Shown here: one piece after another, positions 721 through 46,314 of the stretch
How the letters are laid out: each line of letters starts with the position of its first letter
Position numbering within the stretch: the first letter of the stretch is position 1
Source: Octopus vulgaris
Taxonomy: Eukaryota
DNA length: 64,000 nucleotides
NCBI GenBank assembly: GCA_951406725.2
Contig: OX597834.1
Location: 46,562,001-46,626,000, forward strand
Reading direction: 5' to 3'
The notes under the pieces: model-generated
The model's input: only the letters and a program-made list of their open reading frames with translations
What the model was told of the DNA's origin: nothing
Databases searched by the model: none
Position numbers and translations under genes: made by a program

Positions 721-757
<37 letters not shown>

Positions 758-990
758 GATGGCGAGCTAGCAGAATTGTTTGAAGGCAAGAGAAAATTCT
801 TAGCGGCATGTCGTCCACGTTCTGAGTTCAAATTCCGCCGAGGTCGACTTTGCCTTTCATCTTTTCGGGGTCGATTAAATAAGTACCATTTACGCACCGG
901 GGTCGATATAATTGACTTGATCCGTTTGTCTGTCCTTGTTTGTCCCCTCTATGTTTAGCCCCTTGTGGGCAATAAAGAAATAAGAAATAA
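758..990 (+). mobile_element. tRNA-derived SINE (Nin/Deu-like central domain) with Tx1-like 3' tail
   Basis: A-box-like GGCGAGCTAGCAG head, B-box GAGTTCAAATTCC, core GACTTTGCCTTTCATC..TCGGGGTCGA, tail GTCTGTCCTTGTTTGTCCCCTCT..AGCCCCTTGTGGGCAATAAAGAAATA. Other copies at 11302, 17644 and 34660. Confidence 0.8.
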
Positions 991-1961: not shown

Positions 1962-2162
1962 TTGACGGATGTGATGTCGTTTCAGCTCCGAAGGTAATCA
2001 TTTATTTTGACTATTTATAGGCCAATTTTTGTGTAGATTTTTGCAAATAAGGTGTGTAAGGCAACCAACTTTCATTTGAGTGCTTTTCCAAGGGAGGAAT
2101 TCGCCCCTAGGGGCAGTTTCGACCCCATTTCATTTCTGTTATTTTCTTCTCGACATTAGAAA

Positions 2163-4023
2163 ATGTCTAGAAATTTTATTGTTGAACGCTGGTCGCGTTC
2201 TTTTATGGAACAACATTTTCCTAGTCTGGAAACGACAGAGAAAAAAAAGAACGTTCGCACGGAAAATGCCAACGTAAAATTCGGTGAAATGAACGCTGCA
2301 ACCACGTGCGTTAACAGCCCTGTCACCACCGCCACCACCACCACTAACAACAGCAACCACGAGACAACAACTGCTACCACCACCACCTCCACCACCACCA
2401 CCACCACTACCACGACCAACATAAATGATAAAAATAAAACTGAAACGAAAACTATTGACAAAAACAACAGCAACAACAAGAACAACAATAAAAATGAACT
2501 ATCTAATAGTGAAGATGCTAATACAAAAAAGTCAACAACAGTAAATTTCGCAGATATTCTTCGCCAGAAAAAGGAGATTGTTACATTCACAAATGAAGAG
2601 CTCATAGAAACAAGAGCTCTCTTTACAACCCGTGGACAAGATTTAGTCCTGCATACACCTCAACATATAAAACAAGAAATAGAAAATAAGACAATTGTAT
2701 ATAAAATTATTAGAAAAAACAAAAAACCAAATGAACAGATTACAAAAACTGATGTGGAGAAATGTTTAAAAAACATAATGAAAGAAAAAGAGTATATAAA
2801 CTGGGGTCCCCAGTTTAACACAGTAGTGGTCCGCTTCCCTAACCAGGAAGTGGCAAAAGCTCACTCTACTGAGTCTCTGGGAAATGATGAAATCATCATG
2901 GTCCCTTATTATAAAAACCAGAGGGTGAGTAGAATTACTATCAGAAATGTACCCTCCGATATGCCGAACAAATGGATAACAGGGGCAATCTGTTACCACT
3001 TGAAAAAGATCAATATTCTAGAAACAGCCGTGTACCTAAACGACAATTGGGGTGGAAAAACAGTAGTAGTGACCATCCAGATTGAGGGGCCTCTATCGAG
3101 AGCCTACCCGACAAGATATACTTGGAGAATGGGCAATGCTTATATGTTATGGCAGAAGGCAAAAAGCCTAGATGCTACAAATGTGGCAGCCCCGAACATT
3201 TGATTGCCAAGTGCGATCTGGTACAGAAAAAACAAGAAAGAACAATTCAGAAAACAAATAAAATCCCTTTGTTGCCAACACCAACACCAACACACTCAAT
3301 TATGGAACAACGCCAAGAAAAACAACAAACCAGCAAACAACATCACCAAGAAAAACAGTACCAACACAATCACCGTTGACGTCACAACCAATTAAACTTG
3401 TTGAATCTTCAAAAAATCGACCCACACCCACACCCAGGACGACAATTAAAAAGACAGAAAACACTGACGAGAAGACAAATGCTACCCCTAACACCACAAC
3501 AACACAAACACCGCACAAAACATCAACAATTTATACAAGCATACATAGTGATCCTGTTCTTTTTCCTCTACCCCATACTGATACCTCGGACGACGAAAGT
3601 TCGACGGAATGGCAAATAGCCACAGGGGGTAAAAGAAAAAGATCCAAAAAATCCACCAAACAAGGAATTAAAGCAGGGAGATATCTAACTCAGGACAACA
3701 TCCCCCTAGACAATCAAAAAAGTAATGAACCCGTAAAACCACACACACAACTAACTGCAATAGACACAGACAATAAAGAATTAATGGACTACATCAAATC
3801 TAACATGGTCGTCTGTGAAGATGACTTTAAGACAAACAATCATCCGCACACCACAGAAACACATCAGAATTTTACACATAACACAAGCACAACACCACAT
3901 ACTGAAAACAATATTTCCGAATGCGGTAGGCGGGTATCAACGATACCTGTCGAAAAAACTATACAAACACCTCATCAAAAACGATACAAGAAGAAGAAGA
4001 AAAAAATGAAACTTTTAAAATGA
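2163..4023 (+). pseudogene. Tx1-A ORF1 (nucleic-acid-binding, CCHC zinc knuckle), split by frameshifts
   Basis: ORF pieces 2163-3203, 3122-3379 (CYKCGSPEHLIAKC) and 3376-4023. Homologous in layout to ORF1 at 40416-41843 (V.EG.KP.CY.C...H....C). Confidence 0.8.
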
Positions 4024-4088
4024 GTAAGTGACCTCACTTCTTGCCTCTTGTCTCTTCTAATATAGTGTGTAAAACACAATTTTCGTAA

Positions 4089-7000
4089 ATGTCAAGTATG
4101 CTTAAATTAGGTTGTGTGAATGCGCGTGGCTTGGCGTCGGCTTGGAAGCAAGGTTACCTTCTAAACGACATCAAGTCACTGGACGTGGATATAGTAGCTA
4201 TCAGTGAAACCAGACTCAGTACGCCGCGGGCCCTCGAGTCCATGTTTGGCAATCAATTTGACATTTATTTTTCTCCCTGTCTGCCGAACATGGGTGGTGG
4301 AGGTACTGCGGTGCTTTTTCGAAAGAGTCTAGAGGTAAAAGTAAGAGCAATATTCCTAGACCCGGAGGGTAGGCTGGTTGTCTTGGACGTGGATGGCAGA
4401 AATGGGTGTGCATTCCGTCTGATGGCAGTTTATGCACCGTCCTTAACGGGTCGGGCGGATTTCTTCAGACGTCTAGAGGTTTTCCTGGGTACGTCTAGAC
4501 CTTTACTGTTAGTAGGGGATTGGAACGCTACCTTGGACACGCATCTAGATTATGTGGGAAGGGATAGGAATAGAAGGGGGTGTAAGAGCCTCAAAGACCT
4601 GCTCAGACGTTTCCATTTGTCTGACAGGTTCCGACTCGACCATCCGAACGTGCCAACGTGGACTTGGACAAACCGCGTCGGATCGTCGAGATCTTATCTA
4701 GATAGAATTCTATGCAGGACAGCGGATAGGGATAGTGTAGGATGTCCACAATTTAAAATAGTCAGCTACACAGATCACAAATTTGTTACGTGTACGCTCG
4801 ACTTAGATAAAACACATAGGCAGGGTCCCGGTTACTGGAAACTGAACACGTCGCTGTTAGCGCGACAGGTTTACGGGAACCGGATTAGCGAGTTAATTAA
4901 GAGGGCGCTGACGGGAGCGATCGTTAACAACCGCTGGTGGTACGCCCTGAAAATGGCAATAAAATCGGAATCAATTAGGTTTAGCAAGGAATTAGCGATA
5001 GAACGAAATAGAGTAGAGGGAGACTTAGTTAAGAAACTAGAAGAGGCACTTACCACTGGCAGCGCAACCAACGTGCTGGCTGCGAAGATGGCCCTCGACC
5101 AACACCTCAACGCCAAGCACGAAGGTTGCGTCGTCAGAGCTAAAATGCGTGCCTTAAGGAACGAAGGGATTGAAGCTGCGCGAGAGGCCCGGGTAGCGGA
5201 GGCGCAGCGTGGCAACAGATCAACCATCCGGTCTCTAATAGATCAACAGGGATGCAGTTTACTCGAACCCGAAAGGATGTGTGAGGCCTTTCAACAGCAC
5301 TTTGCTCGACTGTTTGGTGCGAGTGGTGGGTCGGAACGAGGGATGGATTTCAGTGCCTACCTGACCGACCTGCCGCGGCTCTCGGCAAGAGAAGCGGAGT
5401 GTTGTGAAAGTCCCATCACAGCCGCTGACGTGTGGGATGCGATGGCGGGCTGCGCGAGGGATAAGTCGCCTGGATTGGATGGTTTACCCTACGAGCTGTA
5501 TTGTCGAATGCCAGACTTGTTTGGCGACCTCTTGGCATCAGTCTACTGCAACTGGCAACAAAACGGGAGAATCCCCGGTTTCGTGAGCCGAGGTGCAGTG
5601 ACGTTGCTGAAGAAAGACTCAAACAAGGGGAATTTTATAGATAATTTCAGGCCCATCACTCTGCTCAACGCAGATTTGAAAATTTTGGCCAAAGTAATAG
5701 CCGAGAGGTTGGCGCTTGTCATTGGTAAACTGGTCGACAGGGCGCAAACATGCGCCGTGCCGGGCAGAACCATACATGACAACCTCCATCTGATGCGCTA
5801 CATTGTGGACAGGGTAGTTAAGGATCCTGGCATGGGTGGGGCGCTGATAAATTTGGATCAGTCTAAAGCCTTCGATAGGGTCGACCATCGGTACTTGGCG
5901 GCCGTCCTCAGGGCGGCTGGCTTCGGTCCCGTCTTCCGCGGTTGGATCGCTGCCTTGTATAGCGGCATCCGATCGGTGATTCGGGTGAACGGTCACCTGT
6001 CGAAACCGTTTGACATCACGCGTTCGGTCCGTCAGGGGTGTCCCCTGTCGGCGCTTCTGTATGTATTGACTCTCGAGCCGCTACTGCGGAAGCTGGCGAC
6101 ACTGAGGGGCATCCCACGGGAACTGGGTTGCGAGACGAGCGTGTCGGCATATGCGGACGATGTCACCGTCATAGTGTCGAGCTACCAGCACATCGAGCTG
6201 GTCGGCGAGACACTAAGAAAATATGAAACGGTGACGGGAGCAAAGATTAACCCGGAAAAGTCAGTGGGTTTGCTACTCGGCACCTGGAGAAGCAAGCCCA
6301 TGCCGTCCGACTGCGGCTCAGTAGTGGGACGCTGGACGGACGGACCGGTTAAATTGCTCGGGGTCTGGTTCAGTCCGGACCTCCAAATGGATAAGAACTG
6401 GGACGAGATCACGAGTAGAGTGGTCGCTCTCAGCCAAACATGGGCCGAGAGAAAGCTGTCTCTAAAAGGCCGGGCGGAGGTGGCGAACGCGTACATCGCA
6501 TCCGTCATCGATTACCGCCTGACCGTCGTACCTTGTCCCGACGCCACCATCACCAAACTGGAACGCATACTCTTCCGCTTCCTGTGGAAGGGTGGCGTTC
6601 CGATGGTGAGGAAGTCCATTTGCTGTCAACATCCGTTGAATGGAGGACTGGGCATGCCGTGGTTGATGATGCGCAGGCATGCGCTGAGACTGCGACATCT
6701 CTGGAAATTCATCGACGACGGTGAACAGGTGTGGGCGCCGTTTGTGAGGCGCGACTTCCTGCAGCTCGTCTCACTGACCGAACTGCAAACGTGGATCAAA
6801 AAGAGACCGAAACTGGGCGATTGGCACCGAGTGTCGCCAAGCTCTACAGCAGCTCTGCCGACCGGGGTCAAACTTGTGCAACTTCCAAACGACTAAAGCG
6901 TTCTATAGAGGACTAGTGGAGGGGAGGTCCGACGACACACTCGGGGCAAACCTGGGCGTCGACGAGGAATTCCTAACCCGCCTGTTCAGGACGACATTCG

Positions 7001-7536
7001 GGCCGGGGCCTATGGATAACTTCCAGAAATCCCTGGCTTGGCAGTGCTATCGAGACGCACTACCTGTTCGAGAGAAGAGCTACAGACACGGTTCGAAAAC
7101 CATCACCGGACCGACCTGCCCGAGATGCGGTCAGAGCGACGAAACCGTTCTGCACGCACTCGTGCAGTGTCCAGATATTTCAGAGCTGTGGTCCTTCGTC
7201 GAACAGCTGTTGTCACGTGTAGGTCAGGCTCGCCTATCGGCCGAGTCTATCGTGAATATTGTTCCACCACCTTCCTTTAATCGGGAAGGGAAAACGGTTT
7301 TCGTTACGCTGATGGCTATGGCGAAAGAATGTGTGTGGTGGACGCGTTTGAAAGGACTGCAAACAAACACCTTCCTCTCTGGTCAGTCTCTCGTCAACTT
7401 TTTCAAGTACCACTTGAAAAGGAGGATGAGAATAGAGAGGAAGGCTTTGTCGAACGAATGTTTTAATAAAAAGTGGGTAAAAGTGGCAAAAATGGTCAGT
7501 GTGAAAGACGACACTATTTTAAGCATAAATCTGTAA
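4089..7536 (+). CDS. Tx1-A ORF2: APE endonuclease, reverse transcriptase and zinc finger (one frameshift near 6830)
   Basis: NARGL..SETR, GDWN, YLDRI, TDH (APE); KSPGLDG, FRPITLLN, LDQSKAFDRVDH, RQGCPLS, YADD (RT); CPRC..ETVLHALVQC in 6874-7536. Confidence 0.92.
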
Positions 7537-7862
7537 CCAAAAGAGACAACGAGAAGTAAGGCGACTTACTCATGTGTTCTTTTTCGAACTGTCTGAGGTG
7601 ACCTTGGTCTTTTTTGTAGGTTTTTCTTTCCAAGGCTACACCTAAACTGTGAATATTATATATATATATATGGTGCTTTTTTATACACCACACAACCCAC
7701 AGATCTCTATTGATCAAACGTTTTTTTTTTTTTTTTTTTTTTGCCCCACCCATCCCACCTCGAAAAGAAAAAATTCTACATTGTATTTCGTCCATTTTTA
7801 TTCTGTGTTTAGCCCTGTGTGGCTACAATAAAAAGTTATCTATCTATCTATCTATCTATCCA

Positions 7863-16680: not shown

Positions 16681-17643
16681 TTTTGTTGTGTCTGGGGAGA
16701 ATCATTCTCATTTAGTGCCTCATTATTTAACACACTCACCGTGACTTTCTAATTTGTTTGAAATAATGATTCAAAATGGCAAATTTTTGTATAAAATGAT
16801 GATTTATTGGAAAATATTCAACGTTTTTAACATACTAATTGTGGCAAATGACTGTTGCTGGGGCCTTGACAACTGGTGCTGATGTGTTTACATCCCCGTA
16901 ACTTAGCGGTTCGTTGACCCAGCCTGAGTGTAGTCTTATAACTAAAACGAGTGAAAACCAAAACGCTGTTTTTCTGGGTCGTGTTTGTTTATCCAAGACG
17001 TAAAAACATATGAAAAATTTAAAGTGTTCTAAAGTTTGAGAATTTTGTTCTTTCTCATATTTCTTCATCAAATTTCCCGTGTTAATGGGTTTTTCATACA
17101 TTATCATATACAGTTGGGTACAAAAGTGAGTATACAGTTATGAAAAATGAAAACGCGTACAATACTTGTTTATTTTTTATCAAGAACATTCAAAGTTAGC
17201 CTCATTTTTGATATTTTCAATGTCATCGATAATATAATGATTGATTAAGTGCAGGACTGCCCAGTTTAATTTTTTTTCCTCCCTGTTATTAAAAAAAAAA
17301 AAGCCATATTACTCTGAAGAAGTCATGAATGTTAAACATTTGTTTAACTATAAAGTTTATTTGTATATTAAACATAAATTATAATGCTTAATATTACAAG
17401 ATTCGCTTCTGTTTTAAATGTCATCTTCTGTTCATAATTCCATATGTAAACAAATAGCTTTTCTTCACATCCATAAAAATGTAATAAAGCGAAAAAGAAG
17501 TAAATCAATTATTTTAAATCGTATTACATAAGCAAATCACAATTCCTAACTATAGAATTAAGTTTTCAAATTGTGTTAGGCTGCGGTCATGCTGGAGTAT
17601 CACCTTCAAATTATTTAGTCAATAATATAATTTTCCTTATTAA

Positions 17644-18045
17644 GGCGGCGAGCTGGCAGAATCGTTAGCACGCCGGGCGAAATGCTTAGCGGTATTTCGT
17701 CTGCCGTTACGTTCTCAGTTCAAATTCCGCTGAGTTCGACTTTGCCTTTCATCCTTTCGGGGTCGATAAATTAAGTTCCAGTTACGCACTGGGATCGAAG
17801 TAATCGAGTTAATCCATGTGTCTGTCCTTGTTTGTCCTCTCTGTGTTTAGCCCCTTGTGGGTAATAAAGAAATAGGTATTTCGTCTGCCGTTACGTTCAG
17901 AGTTCAAATTCCGCCTAGGTCGACTTTGCCTTTCATCCTTTCGGAGTCGATAGATTAAGTACCAGTTGTGTACTGGGGTTGATATAATCGACTGGCCCCT
18001 CACCACAAAAATTTCGGGCCTTATGTCTAGAGTAGAAAAAGAATA
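17644..18045 (+). mobile_element. Nested/dimeric tRNA-derived SINE (Nin-like core twice)
   Basis: Full head, core and Tx1-like tail ending AAAGAAATA (~17874), then a restart at GGTATTTCGTCTGCC with a second core and a different tail (..CTAGAGTAGAAAAAGAAT). Confidence 0.82.
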
Positions 18046-34200: not shown

Positions 34201-34659
34201 ATGTATGTATGTATGTATGTATGTATGTATGTAGGTAGGTAGGTAGGTAGGTAGGTAGGTAGGTAGGTAGGTAGGTAGGTAGGTATCTTTTATTCTTTTT
34301 CTCTGTTTCAGTCATTAGACTTTGGCCATGCTAGAGCACCACCTTGGAGAACTTTTAGTCATACAAATCGACTCATGTACTCTTTTAAAGCCAGGTATTT
34401 ATTCGATCTGTCGTTTTGGCCGAACCGATAAGATACGGAGACGTGACCAACCAGCACCAGTTGTCAAGCGGTGACGGGGGAACAAACACAGAAAAAAAGA
34501 TAAAATACGTACAGTGCTCATTTCTGTTTATCAAAAACATTAAAAGTTTCGATAAAAGAATTCTTATAGCTATGATGAATGAATTACTATGTTTAATGAT
34601 ACTGAAAATATCAAAAATGAGGCTGACTAATTTAATGTGCTAATAATTTTAACGAATTA

Positions 34660-35021
34660 AATATTCTTTTCTACTCTAGGTACAAGGCCGGAAATTTTTG
34701 GTACTATATTTATCGACCCCGAAAGGATGAAAGGCAAAGTCGACCTCGGCGGAATTTGAACTCAGAACGTAGAGGCAGACGAAATACCTATTTCTTTACT
34801 ACCCACAAGGGGCTAAACACAGAGGGGACAAACAAGGACAGACAAACGGATTAAGTCGATCATATCGACCCCAGAGCGTAACTGGTAATTATTTAATCAA
34901 CCCCGAAAAGATGAAAGGCAAAGTCGACCTCGGCGGAATTTGAACTGAGAACGTAGCGGCAGACGAAATACCGCTAAGCATTTCGCCCGACGTGCTAACC
35001 ATTCTGCCAGCTCTCACCGCC
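34660..35021 (-). mobile_element. Nested/dimeric Nin-like SINE
   Basis: Same junction as at 17644: tail ..AAAGAAATA joined to GGTATTTCGTCTGCC (plus strand GGCAGACGAAATACC|TATTTCTTT at ~34788). Confidence 0.82.
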
Positions 35022-36301: not shown

Positions 36302-36569
36302 TACGTATGGATGTATGTTTGCATTCATGTATGTTTAGTGGAACCAGAAATCAATTGAAACTACTCAACGAATGAGTTGTACATTGTATGTAATGCTATA
36401 ATAATACGATAGTGATTTAGTGTGAACAGACAAACATCCTCCGTTCCCAATACGTAAATATGCCAGAGGATGCGAAAAGTACAGTATTGATCAATATTAA
36501 TTAATAAATAGGTCGAATTGCTGCTAACTTTTTCTTTATTGATTTATAGCGAAAATGATGCTGTCAACC

Positions 36570-36779
36570 GATGGAGATGGTGGGGACAAACACGGATACA
36601 AAAACAAAAAACACAAAAAATGTACATATAAATGTATTCGACAGGCTTCTTTCAGTTTCCGTCTACCAAATCCACTCACAAGGCATTGGTCGGCCCGGGG
36701 CAATAGCAGAAGACACTTGCCCAAGATGTCACGCAGTGGGACTGAACCCGGAACCATGTGGTTGGTTAGCAAGCTACTT
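36570..36779 (-). mobile_element. CORE-like SINE body, split by the Tx1-B insertion (5' head at 42209-42247)
   Basis: Joining 36779 to 42225 rebuilds the intact SINE sequence seen at 45883. Confidence 0.88.
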
Positions 36780-37007
36780 TATTTCATATAATTTGCCATT
36801 TAGGCATTTACAAAGAGGGGACAAACAAGGACAGACAAATATAAAGGGTGAAGTAGCTTAACACAGTTACAATTTTCGAATGAAATTACGGATAAGATTA
36901 TAAACAATGAATTTTACGAAGGCAATGTTTAAAAATATTAATGATCATGTCGAAGGACGGACACCCAGCCATCCGGGTAGAACCTTTACTTTCTGATCCG
37001 GTCACAC

Positions 37008-40000
37008 TTACCTGGTGCCAAACATACCCGTCTCGTATGCCACAGGCTTCCATCTTTTCACAAACATATCTCGTGACAGACACCTCTTCTCCAGCCTGAT
37101 TTTGCTACTGAGGTGGTAACTAAAAAAGTTAATCAACCCCTGGCCGGAGACAAAGGTGCCTGTCACTATACCTTTCGTACGCGTCTTCCATACTGTTTCT
37201 TTCAGTATGGCTGAAAAAACAAGCCTTTCTTTCCCTGTTAAGGAAAGGGGGCGGCACAATCTCGATGATAGACTCAGCTGATAGCTGTACTCTTCCCATC
37301 ACTGACAACAGTTGTTCTACAAAAGCTATCAGTCCCGATAACTCCGGACACTCCACGAATGCGTGCAAGACGGTCTCCCTATCCTGCTCACATCGCGGGC
37401 ATGTCGGCGAGACGGCACTACCGTGCCTTGACAGCTTGTCGCGAACAGGTAAAGCCGCACGGAAACACTGCCAGGCTAGGGATTTCTGGTAATTATCCAG
37501 ATACCCCGGCCCGAACGTCCTCCGGAACAGGTTGATCAGCTGATTTTCATCGTAGCCCAGGGTCTCCCCCAAGGCGTCTTCGGACTTAATCTCCACTAAC
37601 CCGCTATAGAAATCCGTGGTGGAACTCCTGTTGCCGGCGTTGCCCACCCGAGATAGTAGCTGGAGCGCCTGACGGCACTCCAAATGCCATTCACTCAGTT
37701 TAGGTCTCCGCTTGATCCATGCACCGATGTCCGTTAGGGATGTTAACTGGGGAAGGTAGAACCGGACGTGCGGCGACCACACCTGCTCTCCATCCAGGTA
37801 AAGCCAGAGGTGCCTCAACCTTAACGCGAGTTTTCGCATCCTCAGCCAAGGCATCCCTAGCCCACCCTTTAGCGGTTTCTGGCAGCAGACAGAGCGCTTT
37901 ACAAGTGGCTTTCCTCCTTTCCACAAAAATCGGAAAAGGATTCTCTCCAACTTGTTCAGCCACAAATCGGGGCAAGGCACCACGGTAAGACGGTAGGTGA
38001 TTACTGATGCTATAAAGATCTGCGCCACCTCCGCCTTCCCTAGCAGGGATAACGCCCGCCCAGACCAGGTCTGGGTTAGAGCGGTCACCTTGTTGGCCAC
38101 CTCACTCCAATTTTTCTCAATCTGGAGGTCTGGCCCGAACCAGACTCGAGCAGCTTAACAGGACCTTCCGTCCAACGCCCTACGACGTTATTGGACGGCA
38201 TCGGCTTGCCCCTCCAGGTGCCGAGTTGCAAACCGACCGACTTGTCCTTGTTAACCTTTGCTCCTGCCACCGCCTCGTAGCTTTTTATGGCCTCTTCCAC
38301 CACTGGAAGCTGGCCTTCGTCTGCCACGATGATGGAGGTGTCGTCCGCATACGCCGTAGCTCCTCTTCCACACCATAGATCATGCGGCGCGCCCCCTAGT
38401 GCCTCCAACTTCCGCAGCAAAGGCTCAAGAGCCAATACGTATAGGAGCGAGGACAGGGGACACCCTTGACGAACTGAACGCTCGATCCTGAACGGCTTCG
38501 AAAAGGAACCGTTCACCTTGACTACAGACTCGATGTCGCTATACAAAGCAGCGATCCAACCTCGAAAGGTCGGGCCTAGGCCAGCCTCTCCGAGGACCGC
38601 CGCCAGGTACCGATGGTCGACCCTATCAAATGCTTTGGACTGGTCTAAATGTACCAGTGCTCCCCCTGCGCCAGAAAGCTTCCCCACCCTCTCTAAGGAG
38701 TAGCGTATAAGGTGGAGATTGTCGTGGATCGTTCTGCCGGGGATAGCGCACGTTTGCGCTTCCCCGACAAGTTTGTCCACGACCCGCGCCAACCTTTTTG
38801 CTAGCACCTTGGCCAGAATCTTTAACTCTGTGTTTAACAGAGTTATGGGCCTGAAGTTCCCTATCTCGTCCCCCTTGTTCGGGTCCTTCCTGATCAAGGT
38901 CACCGCCCCCGGCTCGCAGACTTGGGAATTCTCCCATTCTGCTGCCAGTTGGCGTAGACGCTAGCCAGCAGGTGCCCGAACAAGTTTGGCATACTTCTAT
39001 AAAATTCATAGGGCAGACCATCGAGACCCGGCGACTTCTCCCCGGGGCACTTGCCCAACACCTCGATTACTTCCTCGGCTGTGATTGGCCCTTCACAGCA
39101 CTCAGCCTCTCGTGTCGAGAGGCGCGGGCCACCAGACAGGAAGTCCCTAAGGGCCTCACCATGATCCAGCGTCCCGCACCTCCCGAACAACTCGGCGAAG
39201 TGCTTGTGGAGTGCCTCACACATCTCGTCCCGCTTCTTGATCGTGCATCCGTTTTCATCAACAAGAGACCCAATTGTGGCATCGTTTCCACGCTGTGTTT
39301 CTATCGTACGGGCCCATCCGGCAACATTAATTCCCTCACGGCCCAATGCTCGTACTTTAGCCCGGACTCTACATCCCTCATGTTTGGTTTTGAGGTGACG
39401 GTCTAATGCCGTTCTCGCCGCTAAAATGTGAGATGCAGAGCCCAACCTCAACGCCTCCTCTAAGTTCTTAACTAGTTGCCCTTCTATTCTAGCCCTATCT
39501 AGTCTTAGTTGTTTACTAAATCTAATGGACTCGAATCGAATGGCTCTTTTGAGGGTGAACCACCACCGGTTATTAACCACGGCTCCGGTTAACGCCCTCT
39601 GCACTAACACCTTAATCCGGCTACGGTATGCCTCGCGTGTCAAAATAGACTTGTTCAGCTTCCAGTAGCCGGTTCCTATCTTAAGTGTGCTATCTATGTC
39701 CAGTCTACACGTGACCATTCTATGGTCAGTATAGGGCACCTGGACGAGCTGTGGACAACTAAAACTAGACTTATCTCTAGTTCTTATCACTATCCTGTCT
39801 AGATAAGACTTGAACCTTCCGTCGCCACTCATCCAGGTCCACTCTGGGACGTTCGGATGGTCAAGTCTGTAACGATCTGCTAGCTGAAACCGCTTAAGCA
39901 GATCCACGAGACGTGAGTTCACTTTCCTATAGATCGAGCCAACGCTATCGATGTGTACGTCAACGATAGCATTAAAGTCCCCTAATATCACTAAAGTCTT

Positions 40001-40399
40001 CGACGTCACGAGAAAGCCCTCTAGGCGCCGATAAAAATCAGTTTGGAAACCTCTAGCACAAGGTGCATAGAGTCCGATTAACCTGAAGGCCTTACTGCTG
40101 TATGTCACATCAAAGACGACCAGCCCACCTTCTGGGTCTACATAGACTGTACTTGTCTGTAGAGCCAATTCTTTACGGATCAGTACCACTACGCCCCCTC
40201 GCCCTCCGGTCTGGCCAGGAGACATGATTTTCTCGTAGCCATTCAGGAGAGGCGAGAAGGTTTGTAGGCTGTCCAGCTTGGTCTCTGTAGCAACCATCAC
40301 ATGTATATCATGTGATCTGAGGTCGTCGAGGAAACAAGCCTGCTTCCACTTCGAACTCAGACCACGCACATTTAAACAACCAAGGTTAAGCGAAGCCAT
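37008..40399 (-). CDS. Tx1-B ORF2 (APE, RT, zinc finger) with three frameshifts
   Basis: Pieces 38900-40399, 38085-38903, 37129-38100 and 37008-37259. Motifs NVRGL, GDFN, YLDRI, TDH, LDQSKAFDRVDH, YADD, CPRC..LHAFVEC. Clearly homologous to Tx1-A ORF2. Confidence 0.9.
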
Positions 40400-40415
40400 T
40401 ACAAAAGTAAAGGTT

Positions 40416-41843
40416 CTACTTACATTTCGTTGGAGAGGTGGGGGCCGACCTCACCACACGTTTGTGGGCCCCTTCTTTCTCCTCTTTCTTCAGATAGTCC
40501 GGCAAGTTCGCGATATGCCGGATGGCGTTTGGGTGTCTGTCTTTTAATTGTTTGAACGTTGTTTCCGCAATCCACGCGTGTCTATTTCGATCTTTGTATT
40601 TGTTGTACAGTCTTGCTGACTGATGCTGAACCACAATATCGTTTATGTATTTGTCTTGTGTGTCGAATTCAATTAATATGAGTTCATTTTCTTTTTTGTC
40701 TTCTTTTTCTGGGCCAGTTGAGCGGGATTTTTTTTTCCGTGTCTGTGGTGTGTCTTTGTTTTTATTATTTTTTGTAGGGGATGTGGACGGGGATGCTGCA
40801 CGAATTCTTTTACGAACTGGTGTAAATCCCCCCTCTGATACCTCCATGGTATCGTCTGTGGTAGCAATAGTTTGTTCGGTAGGCGCCGCAGTTTTTAGGG
40901 GGGTGGGAGGTTTTAATAGTGTAGGGGTTTGTGAGTGCGAGGGCTGGGTTTTTTCTTCAGTCTGTTTTGGGGTTGGCACCGTAACAGCAGGAGTGGGATT
41001 TTTTGTTTTTGTAGGGGTAGGTGTGTTTGCAAGGGTAGGGACTTTTTTATTATCTGAGGGGCCTGGTGTCTGCGGTTTCTTTTGCTTGTCTGGACAGTCT
41101 ACACGAATGTGGCCCTTTTTGTTGCAGGCGTAACAGGTGGGTTTTCGGCCTTCGACCTGTACCCTGAGGGCTACGTTCTCGCCCACGAGCACCCTCTCAG
41201 GAAGGAGCTGCAGGTCCTCCGCTGTTCCTTGAATTAATATATTAATGTTACGCCCGAGCCAAAATCGAGGGGTAGAGCATGTTACTTCTAGTATTTTTAT
41301 TTTGTCCGCCCTTTTATATAACAGGGCGGCCACTACCTCTACCGGATCTACGTCCGGCGGGGCTTCTACAATCCTGACCCGGGACGACCTGCGTCCCCTA
41401 TAGCTTGGAAAAAGTACCACCTCCTTGGTTTTTAGGGGGTTCACAGAATGCCCGCGGGCCATTTCTTCCCCCGAGAAGCGGACATCCACAGTGCCATATG
41501 CCCGTCCCCTGGCGATGTACACGATGTCCTTCCAAATCGGGGACAGGCATTTCTCGATGGTGCTTTTTTCAAAGTGTTTGAACCTTCTGCTTTGTGGACA
41601 GAAAGTTTTAAACACTACGGTCCGCTTCTCGGTCTCCACGATACTGGCGGAGGGTGATATTTTAACATCACCACCCTCCTCTTGCATTCTTTTAAATAGC
41701 TCGACGAGCTGGTTGACATCGATGTCAATCTTCTCGGTAGCCACTGCGGCTACCTCAGAAAATTTTTTAACATTGCTCTCCTCAAGAGCACTACTTTCGT
41801 GAATAATTTCAACAGACATTATTCTGTTGAAATTAGACAACAC
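40416..41843 (-). CDS. Tx1-B ORF1, intact 475 aa with CCHC knuckle
   Basis: CYACNKKGHIRVDC followed by a P/T-rich linker. Lies directly upstream of ORF2. Confidence 0.88.
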   Translation of the reverse strand: MLSNFNRIMSVEIIHESSALEESNVKKFSEVAAVATEKIDIDVNQLVELFKRMQEEGGDVKISPSASIVETEKRTVVFKTFCPQSRRFKHFEKSTIEKCLSPIWKDIVYIARGRAYGTVDVRFSGEEMARGHSVNPLKTKEVVLFPSYRGRRSSRVRIVEAPPDVDPVEVVAALLYKRADKIKILEVTCSTPRFWLGRNINILIQGTAEDLQLLPERVLVGENVALRVQVEGRKPTCYACNKKGHIRVDCPDKQKKPQTPGPSDNKKVPTLANTPTPTKTKNPTPAVTVPTPKQTEEKTQPSHSQTPTLLKPPTPLKTAAPTEQTIATTDDTMEVSEGGFTPVRKRIRAASPSTSPTKNNKNKDTPQTRKKKSRSTGPEKEDKKENELILIEFDTQDKYINDIVVQHQSARLYNKYKDRNRHAWIAETTFKQLKDRHPNAIRHIANLPDYLKKEEKEGAHKRVVRSAPTSPTKCK

Positions 41844-42559
41844 AAAAATTACGAATATTGGTTTCCCACAAAACTGGGAAACCTATAGAAAGTTTTTCTT
41901 CCAAAGTAGTTCAAAAAAGCAGTTCAAAAATTCCAATTCCCACCCCCATTCGGGGGAGGGGCACGAAAATAGTCTGGCAGGACTATATATAGTCACGTAA
42001 ATAAAAAGCCACAGTGGCTAACAGTTCAACGGTAAGAAATTATTCAATTATTTCCCGGTAAAACCGGAGAACAAGACAGTTCAGCAACGTTTAAAGGCAA
42101 ATTTTCAGTAGTAGGAATTCAACAATTAACAACACAGCAAAACTCTTACCGGGAAGAAAACGCGTCCAAACCGTAGTACGGTAGGCAAAGTCACTCTTCT
42201 GTCAGTGAGGTTAGCAAGCTACTTACCACACAGCCACTCCTGCGCCTATATGTATAAAAAACATGAATAGGTCGACATTGGTGACACTGACAGACCCTGT
42301 TCTATAACTTAACTGCGGTTACATATTTAGCCTAGCGTGAACCAATTTATGGCTCTAACATATGAATACACGGAAATACGATTTGTAGTCTTTCTTTATT
42401 CAAATTAGTACGAATATTCATGCGTCTTTTAGAAATATTATAGTAATGCGTATAGCCGTACTCCCGGGTCGTGTATTTTTAAATAATAATAATAATATCC
42501 CATTATATGTACTACCAGAAAGACCGCCCTCCAGTTTTCCCCATTTTTATATATATATA

Positions 42560-45754: not shown

Positions 45755-46314
<560 letters not shown>

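Follow-up and report, generated by a model that had tools for sequence, protein, structure and literature searches.

Within the 64,000 nucleotide stretch of Octopus vulgaris contig OX597834.1 that was analysed (positions 46,562,001 to 46,626,000; the window, whose own coordinates are used below), a LINE of the L1/Tx1 type lies inside the head of a SINE, which raises the question of whether it landed there by chance or belongs to a family that recognises this site. The LINE was found at 36780–42208 on the minus strand and was 5.4 kb long, with 5,429 bp between two copies of a 16-mer (36764–36779 and 42209–42224) that could not be extended on either side. A first-pass annotation of the sequence had proposed that the LINE interrupts the SINE head in the same orientation and separates the A and B boxes. 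This was confirmed by the 16-mers and by rejoining the SINE head (42225–42246) to the SINE body (36763 downward), which restored a match to uninterrupted copies in the window, such as that at 45884–46099.

Read along the minus strand, the locus begins with positions 1–22 of the host SINE (42225..42246), assigned by their match to the uninterrupted copies. These contain an A-box-like motif (42226–42236), which we take to be an A box on the basis of its sequence and the known organisation of Pol III type 2 promoters. Following the 5′ copy of the 16-mer (42209..42224), the LINE consists of a 5′ UTR (41820..42208), whose 5′ end was uniform in 79 of 100 copies, ORF1 (40416..41819; 467 amino acids), ORF2 (37008..40399) and a 3′ UTR without poly(A) (36780..37007), at the end of which an AATAAA was complete only with the first two target bases. 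Three features were located in this 3′ UTR: a 9-nt motif antisense to target positions 1–9 (36851..36859), a 30-bp stretch common to the LINE and the tail of a second SINE family, distinct from the host (36810..36839), and a short terminal stem-loop (36794..36806) that the LINE has in common with its passenger elements and with a (TATC)n family described below. The 3′ copy of the 16-mer (36764..36779) is the original target, SINE positions 23–38, and the remaining host SINE (36556..36763), which in this copy has lost its tail or retains it in decayed form, contains a B-box-like motif (36738–36748). Compared with three other copies, ORF2 was broken by three frameshifts, two of them single-base gaps (near 38911 and near 38148) and the third a gap of 8 bp near 37213. 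The element, annotated at first pass as a full-length Tx1, was thus full length though not intact.

Domain searches of ORF2 revealed an N-terminal APE endonuclease (Exo_endo_phos, PF03372), a reverse transcriptase (RVT_1, PF00078) and a C-terminal zf-RVT (PF13966), and the CCHC zinc knuckle of ORF1 (zf-CCHC, PF00098) scored 22.4 bits against a cut-off of 20.8. ORF2 aligned with human L1 ORF2p across residues 6–870 (E 5.5e-67) and with R2 proteins in the RT region only (E about 7e-20), placing it nearer to L1 than to RLE-type elements. A separate ORF1 with a CCHC zinc knuckle is a feature of the Tx1 clade, and a 3′ poly(A) tail is a feature of the L1 clade proper; none of the 100 LINE junctions started with four As. 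Protein homologue searches with the LINE returned unnamed proteins only, with no named Tx1 relative among the matches. The Tx1 label is consistent with the domains and with the similarity to the L1 group. In the account of crocodilian Tx1 elements, target preference is taken as >20% of flanks being of one kind (PMC4494074); the figure for the octopus LINE was 99 of 100.

The host SINE was short, dispersed and present at very high copy number (53,949 exact matches of a 33-mer), with tails ending in short tandem units and with A and B box-like motifs 33 bp apart. ARAGORN predicted a cloverleaf at a relaxed score only and none at the default, and an Rfam scan of an intact copy gave simple-repeat noise only, with no tRNA match. 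The SINE presumably resembles the octopus OR2, or CORE, SINE. OR2 has been assigned to the CORE SINEs (PMC4758252).

LINE copies were collected with an exact 27-mer, a flank-blind pattern that biases the sample to young copies, and 100 of its 107 exact matches were taken. The family is young, with a median identity of 98.3% to the window copy. The first-pass annotation had suggested that the 3′ junction might recur among other copies, and that insertions at unrelated sequences would speak against a specific target. The same base was used in 99 of the 100 copies, the window junction being repeated in 98 of the 99 others, and an unrelated insertion site was seen once. Ninety of the on-site copies lay directly in the SINE and seven were stacked at a SINE 16-mer; the remaining two comprised one rearranged copy and one, L168, in a non-SINE tandem repeat bearing the first 9 target bases, where 16 bp were duplicated. 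The SINE half of the proposal that the target is a SINE or tRNA-like sequence was therefore borne out, in 90 flanks, but tRNA genes could be discarded as 0/100 flanks continued as a tRNA gene. For the LINE, the SINE may represent a safe haven.

The target itself was strongly conserved among occupied SINEs. No differences were found at target positions 1–6 among 87 host SINEs, and positions 1–10 differed in 8 of 870 cells, compared with 205 of the 6,232 cells further downstream (p 2.7e-5). The first 7 target bases were intact in 85/87 occupied heads and in 17/32 empty heads. Altogether, the LINE and ORF1-only passengers filled approximately 1,300–1,340 junctions, distributed over two versions of the site, and at least 58,000 sites were empty. 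Older relatives occupied the other version (256 junctions), including 4 passengers with a tail motif matching the newer one; recognition of target position 4 is therefore not absolute across the lineage. Occupied hosts fell into two subfamilies (57 and 30 of 87), and no preference for one young subfamily was seen on comparison with the ratio of about 62:38 among 100 empty sites, counted by eye among the matches listed. A sister LINE family in the same window was followed by TATC units in 30/30 copies and by the SINE site in 0/30; its identity to the SINE-targeting LINE was 61% in ORF2, 49% in EN and 69% in RT.

Among 300 random pairs of copies, the element 3′ ends were 98.0% alike whereas the SINE flanks were 91.8% alike. 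The host SINE copies were older than the elements they contain, and the insertions were therefore independent; additionally, the outer flanks of the copies were mutually unrelated.

The maximum target duplication was 16 bp, and 16 bp were duplicated in the truncated copies L099, L153, L168 and L174. Target position 13 varied in 23 of 74 hosts, and none of the 37 host differences at positions 13–16 was present at the 5′ side. Because these variants were not copied, the last 4–7 bases of the apparent 5′ TSD of full-length copies (42209 to about 42215 in the window) are carried by the element, leaving approximately the first 9–10 bases as duplicated target; the nick spacing would still be 16 bp. 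The repeat in the window is exact only because its host SINE subfamily has the same sequence as the element-carried 5′ bases. Hence the 16-bp TSD annotated at first pass holds as a nick spacing but not, for full-length copies, as a wholly duplicated sequence. Target variants at positions 8, 9 and 10 were present on both sides in single copies (L155, L185 and L236). However, 4 of 5 host variants at positions 7–10 were absent from the 5′ repeat, suggesting that the RNA-borne part of the 16-mer may be larger than 4–7 bases. Positions 1–10 of the 5′ repeat were too invariant to fix the boundary there.

Our preferred reading, to which we give a probability of about 70%, is that this copy belongs to a young L1/Tx1-type family occupying a single fixed position within the SINE head, and that the endonuclease most likely brings it there by reading the sequence around that position. 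The published account of Tx1 elements attributes their target choice to the endonuclease (PMC4494074). Judging from the junctions, ORF2p would nick the bottom strand between SINE positions 22 and 23, and the top strand would be nicked 16 bases further on. As the AATAAA of the LINE is completed by target bases, its RNA probably continues past the element end to include a few bases of downstream target, with which the nicked strand would pair, priming at one exact base; accurate priming by R1Bm is described as requiring downstream target (PMC7265360). At the other end, the RNA would start about 5–7 bases inside the upstream duplicate, so that the end of the cDNA could anneal at the overhang tip, which it would overwrite, producing uniform 5′ ends. 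Truncated cDNAs, without target-like 5′ bases, would be joined by microhomology with 1–16 bp duplicated. The left junction would restore the site, allowing later elements to stack upstream, and the ORF1-only passengers, which have the same terminal stem-loop, would borrow ORF2p. Target-matching bases at both LINE ends likely help precise joining, and the antisense 3′-UTR motif is probably an accessory helper rather than the main determinant.

A larger role for this motif, in which it pairs with the displaced top strand or the RNA read-through end, supplies a large share of the specificity and changed together with the site as the SINE changed, is possible but rather unlikely. The motif is complementary to the target at 9/9 positions, lies 71–79 nt from the LINE end and exceeds in length every other antisense match of the element (43/20,000 shuffles of its final 150 nt); however, it was chosen after looking, and chance antisense matches are made easier by its palindromic core, AGCT. 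It was kept in 98/100 LINE copies and in the older autonomous relatives L237, L248 and L252, whose UTRs have otherwise diverged. The passenger tails agreed with the version of the site in 45/50 cases (motif-A in 31/32 at the newer site, motif-T in 14/18 at the older), an agreement not expected from targeting by protein alone, and autonomous-type tails agreed in 4/4 and 1/1. The pseudoknot-free fold predicted for the final 100 nt also went from -9 kcal/mol to -16 kcal/mol when 16 nt of read-through were included. Against this, supported branches held only 3 independent motif-site pairs, with which the sign test was not significant, 4 tails were mismatched, and one passenger family used either site with no antisense motif (15 tails). 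GATAGA was absent from the final 300 nt of the (TATC)n family (0/30), and with both of these families lacking it the motif was rejected as a clade-wide feature. It is similarly doubtful that the lineage tracked one SINE through three successive subfamilies by RNA-DNA pairing at the 5′ bases, the 3′ read-through and the co-changing antisense motif. The same three pairings taken as RNA-assisted, co-evolving and possibly reprogrammable LINE targeting make for an equally tentative proposal.

Sequence reading by the endonuclease was also weighed against a preference for the region, in which tethering by SINE-bound Pol III factors, or open chromatin, would act alongside a loose sequence preference. 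Elements associated with tRNA genes are a precedent for such tethering, the insertion site is one base past the A-box-like motif, and the occupied heads are mostly well preserved. Nevertheless, the precision of a single base in a single orientation, the selective conservation of positions 1–10, the occupation of a motif-bearing non-SINE repeat, and stacked sites lying kilobases from any B box make this very improbable. Amplification of one SINE-LINE composite as a unit, by co-transcription or segmental duplication from one old insertion, was rejected as the least probable explanation because 5′-truncated copies sit at the same base and the hosts, from two subfamilies, have diverged more than the elements, with unrelated outer flanks and an occupied non-SINE site (L168) also opposing it, even though some of the 5′ repeat is passed on along with the element and one junction variant showed weak clustering on the tree of copies (13 changes compared with 17.2 when shuffled, 1/500).

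Tx1 elements that target transposons are already known, and a SINE adds to their list of targets. As described, the crocodilian Tx1-Mar LINEs (PMC4494074) are likewise Tx1-type and insert into another abundant transposon, Mariner-N4_AMi; the same target is used by their non-autonomous passengers (SINEU), a TSD lies between tandem insertions, and the TSD reported for SINEU-3 is 16 bp, the same length as in the octopus. The Tx1-Mar target is, however, a DNA transposon and not a putatively tRNA-like SINE head, and its passengers are snRNA-headed SINEs whereas those of the octopus are ORF1-only elements of 1.5–2.2 kb. Youth and a specificity of 99/100 at one base further distinguish the octopus LINE from Tx1-Mar as reported. 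Other targets named in these sources (PMC4494074, PMC3706591) are Tx1D for Tx1L in Xenopus, LTR elements for Tx1-8_Crp and Tx1-4_AMi, Harbinger for Tx1-9_AMi, U2 for Keno, microsatellites for Kibi and Koshi, the tRNA-Leu spacer for Dewa and 5S for Mutsu; no SINE is among them, unlike in the octopus. All of these elements and the octopus LINE are APE-type with family-specific repetitive targets, and Kibi and Koshi have a counterpart in the microsatellite-targeting sister family of the window. No SINE-targeting LINE was found in the literature searched, Repbase being outside the search. In R2, target-derived bases at the RNA 5′ end are described as annealing to the target and giving uniform 5′ junctions (PMC3774820), as proposed here, but the R2 endonuclease is restriction-like, and R2 has a single ORF and an HDV-like ribozyme, whereas the octopus LINE is APE-type with two ORFs. 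Dada elements also target the A-box region of Pol III type 2 promoters but are DNA transposons, use real tRNA genes and have a 6-bp TSD (PMC3706591).

SINEs thus join the targets of sequence-specific LINEs, reversing the usual relation in which a SINE exploits a LINE, and each insertion parts the A box of a SINE from its B box. The presence in one genome of a young family, its relatives at the older site and a 61%-identical (TATC)n sister makes target change by an APE endonuclease testable, as is the contribution of RNA pairing to targeting. The junctions bear on the open question of how the LINE 5′ end is completed, and element-carried target bases distort TSD calls and SINE/LINE consensus ends in the octopus genome. 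The target SINE was rejected as a passenger of the LINE itself since their tails do not align (local score 12, reached in 479/500 shuffles). The tail of the second SINE family aligned to that of the LINE with a local score of 55, reached in 0/500 shuffles.

The 16-mer (SINE positions 23–38, here target positions 1–16) was found at 36764–36779 and 42209–42224 of the window, and the repeat could not be extended on either side. A third, single occurrence lay in an uninterrupted SINE at 45906. The 5,429-bp element between the two 16-mers was on the minus strand, as was the split SINE, which confirmed the co-orientation reported by the first-pass annotation. It encoded ORF1 (40416–41819, minus strand), with a zinc knuckle, and ORF2 (37008–40399, minus strand), with endonuclease, RT and zf-RVT domains; ORF2 of the window copy was broken at three places. 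Human L1 ORF2p was its nearest relative among solved structures. Protein homologue searches returned no named Tx1 reference, and the Tx1 label is consistent with the architecture, the L1-group similarity, the target specificity and the lack of poly(A), which was seen at the 3′ junction in none of 100 family copies.

A flank-blind 27-mer within the LINE, stopping 5 bases short of its end, matched exactly at 107 places in the 2.8-Gb genome, and the control gave 0. One hundred of these, including the window's own copy, were examined with 6.6 kb upstream of each, a sample biased to young copies. The first six target bases followed the 3′ junction in 98 copies and one more had one A fewer, so that the junction whose recurrence the first-pass annotation had proposed checking fell at the same base in 99 of 100; only copy L179 lay in unrelated sequence. 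Downstream DNA was SINE body (88 copies), SINE remnants (2), the 16-mer and then either another element or unknown DNA (7), a rearranged SINE (1) or a non-SINE tandem repeat (1). As a 33-mer of the empty site had 53,949 exact matches, one such bond in one orientation represents only about 1e-5 to 5e-5 of all genome positions. The second LINE of the window, a full-length sister element inserted in (TATC)n (about 1963–7836, plus strand), served as a control. It shared 61% identity with the focal LINE in ORF2 (endonuclease 49%, RT 69%) and its 3′ end had 338 matches; TATC units followed in 30 of 30 copies fetched (27 passing a three-unit test) and the SINE site in none. The SINE-site specificity of the focal family is real.

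The copies are independent insertions. Across 300 random copy pairs, similarity was 98.0% for the element ends and 91.8% for the SINE flanks, and 5′-truncated copies sat at the same base as full-length ones. The 87 hosts analysed (the remaining 13 copies had no plain SINE flank) comprised two subfamilies, one of 57 and one of 30, which diverged from their respective majority sequences by 3.1% and 5.8%. The other 78 full-length copies were 91.3–99.5% identical to the window copy (median 98.3%); by our own criteria 10 of the 79 kept a long open ORF2 frame and two kept both frames. Target positions 1–6 did not vary among the 87 hosts, and positions 1–10 varied by 0.9% compared to 3.3% downstream (p = 2.7e-5; CpG and diagnostic columns excluded). 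The first seven target bases were kept in 85 of 87 occupied heads and 17 of 32 empty ones. Additionally, a truncated copy, L168 (G000:C13:64560179), lay with a 16-bp duplication in a non-SINE tandem repeat whose first nine bases are those of the target. The invariant positions, intact occupied heads and non-SINE site point to the target sequence being read by the element.

The 16-bp target site duplication described earlier held only in part for full-length copies: the 16-mer is present on both sides, but host variants at its end are not. Among the 74 full-length copies whose 3′ flank is SINE, 23 hosts differed from the window 16-mer at position 13, and none of 37 host differences at positions 13–16 appeared in the 5′ repeat. 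Outside this set, the 5′ side of the older copy L185, which is stacked on both sides, had the other base at position 13. Host variants at positions 8, 9 and 10, one each, were common to both sides (L155, L185 and passenger L236). The boundary between duplicated target and element-carried bases falls at roughly positions 10–12, placed no more closely because four of five variants at positions 7–10 in the 74 copies were absent from the 5′ side. An extra T preceded position 10 in 15 of 66 unstacked copies and position 11 or 12 in nine, consistent with addition of an untemplated base to the cDNA end. On a 75-copy FastTree tree of near-identical rows the former was weakly clustered (1 of 500 shuffles) and the latter was not (76 of 500). 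Among the 21 copies whose alignment did not start at base 1, the 16-bp duplication was clean in four truncated ones; others had 1–10 bp or none.

These junctions suggest two nicks 16 bp apart, with an RNA that would start inside the upstream duplicate and anneal to the overhang, much as RNA annealing to the target was postulated for R2 elements keeping 28S bases (PMC3774820). At the 3′ end, read-through RNA probably pairs with the target, because there is no poly(A) and the AATAAA needs target bases to be complete; such pairing is stated for R1Bm (PMC7265360).

Known Tx1 targets include DNA transposons, LTR elements, snRNA, 5S, tRNA-array spacers and microsatellites (PMC4494074, PMC3706591, PMC8869645), so transposon-targeting families are not new. 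Our literature search found no SINE-targeting LINE, although Repbase, Dfam or the subscription literature (Kojima and Fujiwara 2004 among it) may contain an entry; none is described in the accessible text of PMC8967140 and PMC4758252. A 2026 octopus repeat annotation reports 13 recently active L1-Tx1 families, and the words "target" and "nested" are absent from its main text as accessible (PMC13282606). The crocodilian Tx1-Mar/SINEU system, as described in PMC4494074, resembles ours in its passengers, tandem stacking and 16-bp duplication.

Another element's 3′ end lay upstream in 10 of the 79 full-length copies. Twelve fetched neighbours were mostly 1.5–2.2 kb passengers in head-to-tail stacks that shared the terminal stem-loop and contained an ORF1-like frame but no ORF2. 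A pattern of this tail plus the site had 1,087 matches. With the older site version in place of the newer one, there were 256 more, and the older site when empty had 4,092. A flank-blind passenger pattern had 753 matches; 25 of 30 were at either site version and five were altered. Twenty chosen tail types included older autonomous relatives (ORF2 86% and 72% identical), and the 5′ carried bases tracked SINE subfamily, with oldest, middle and youngest forms in stacked ends. The family also occurred in sequencing runs assigned to three organism labels, no RNA run being listed among them; contigs of two were examined. L194, L196, L254 and related loci formed a 1.5-kb ORF1-only passenger family that was present at both site versions and lacked the antisense tail motif described below. 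Several passenger 5′ ends began with a GCGCATGCG-like palindrome. One SINE held three full-length copies head to tail (L148–L150, G000:C9:2664560-2680900), and at least seven 2-kb passenger copies preceded one full-length copy at G000:C1:223689000-223707000 (L103, L192). Two family 3′ junctions faced each other in opposite orientation 50 bp apart (G000:C1:111116892-111116967), and at L049 (G000:C17:75138757 region) a tRNA-like 3′ half, recognised by eye, abutted the host SINE head on its upstream side.

A tail motif at 36851–36859 was complementary to the target site at 9/9 bases, a score reached by 43 of 20,000 shuffles for a motif picked after looking, and 98 of the 100 copies retained it. 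In one passenger group, 45 of the 50 tails scored (three were unscored) had a base opposite target position 4 that fitted the site, as did 5/5 autonomous-type tails, and four related passenger tails mismatched it; with three independent pairs only, the fit was not significant. The motif was lacking in the 15 tails of a second passenger group and had no counterpart in the (TATC)n family; it is likely to be accessory. Several very short insertions (L174, L181, L182, L257 and L310) broke off at or near it, as if reverse transcription had stalled or switched template there.

The target SINE did not have the focal LINE's tail in common with it. A second SINE family had three window copies, at about 17640–18030 (plus strand), 34650–35020 (minus) and 750–985 (plus). 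It had 30 bp in common with the focal LINE tail, as well as the type of terminal stem-loop, and two of the three copies ended in the head of another copy, at one position.
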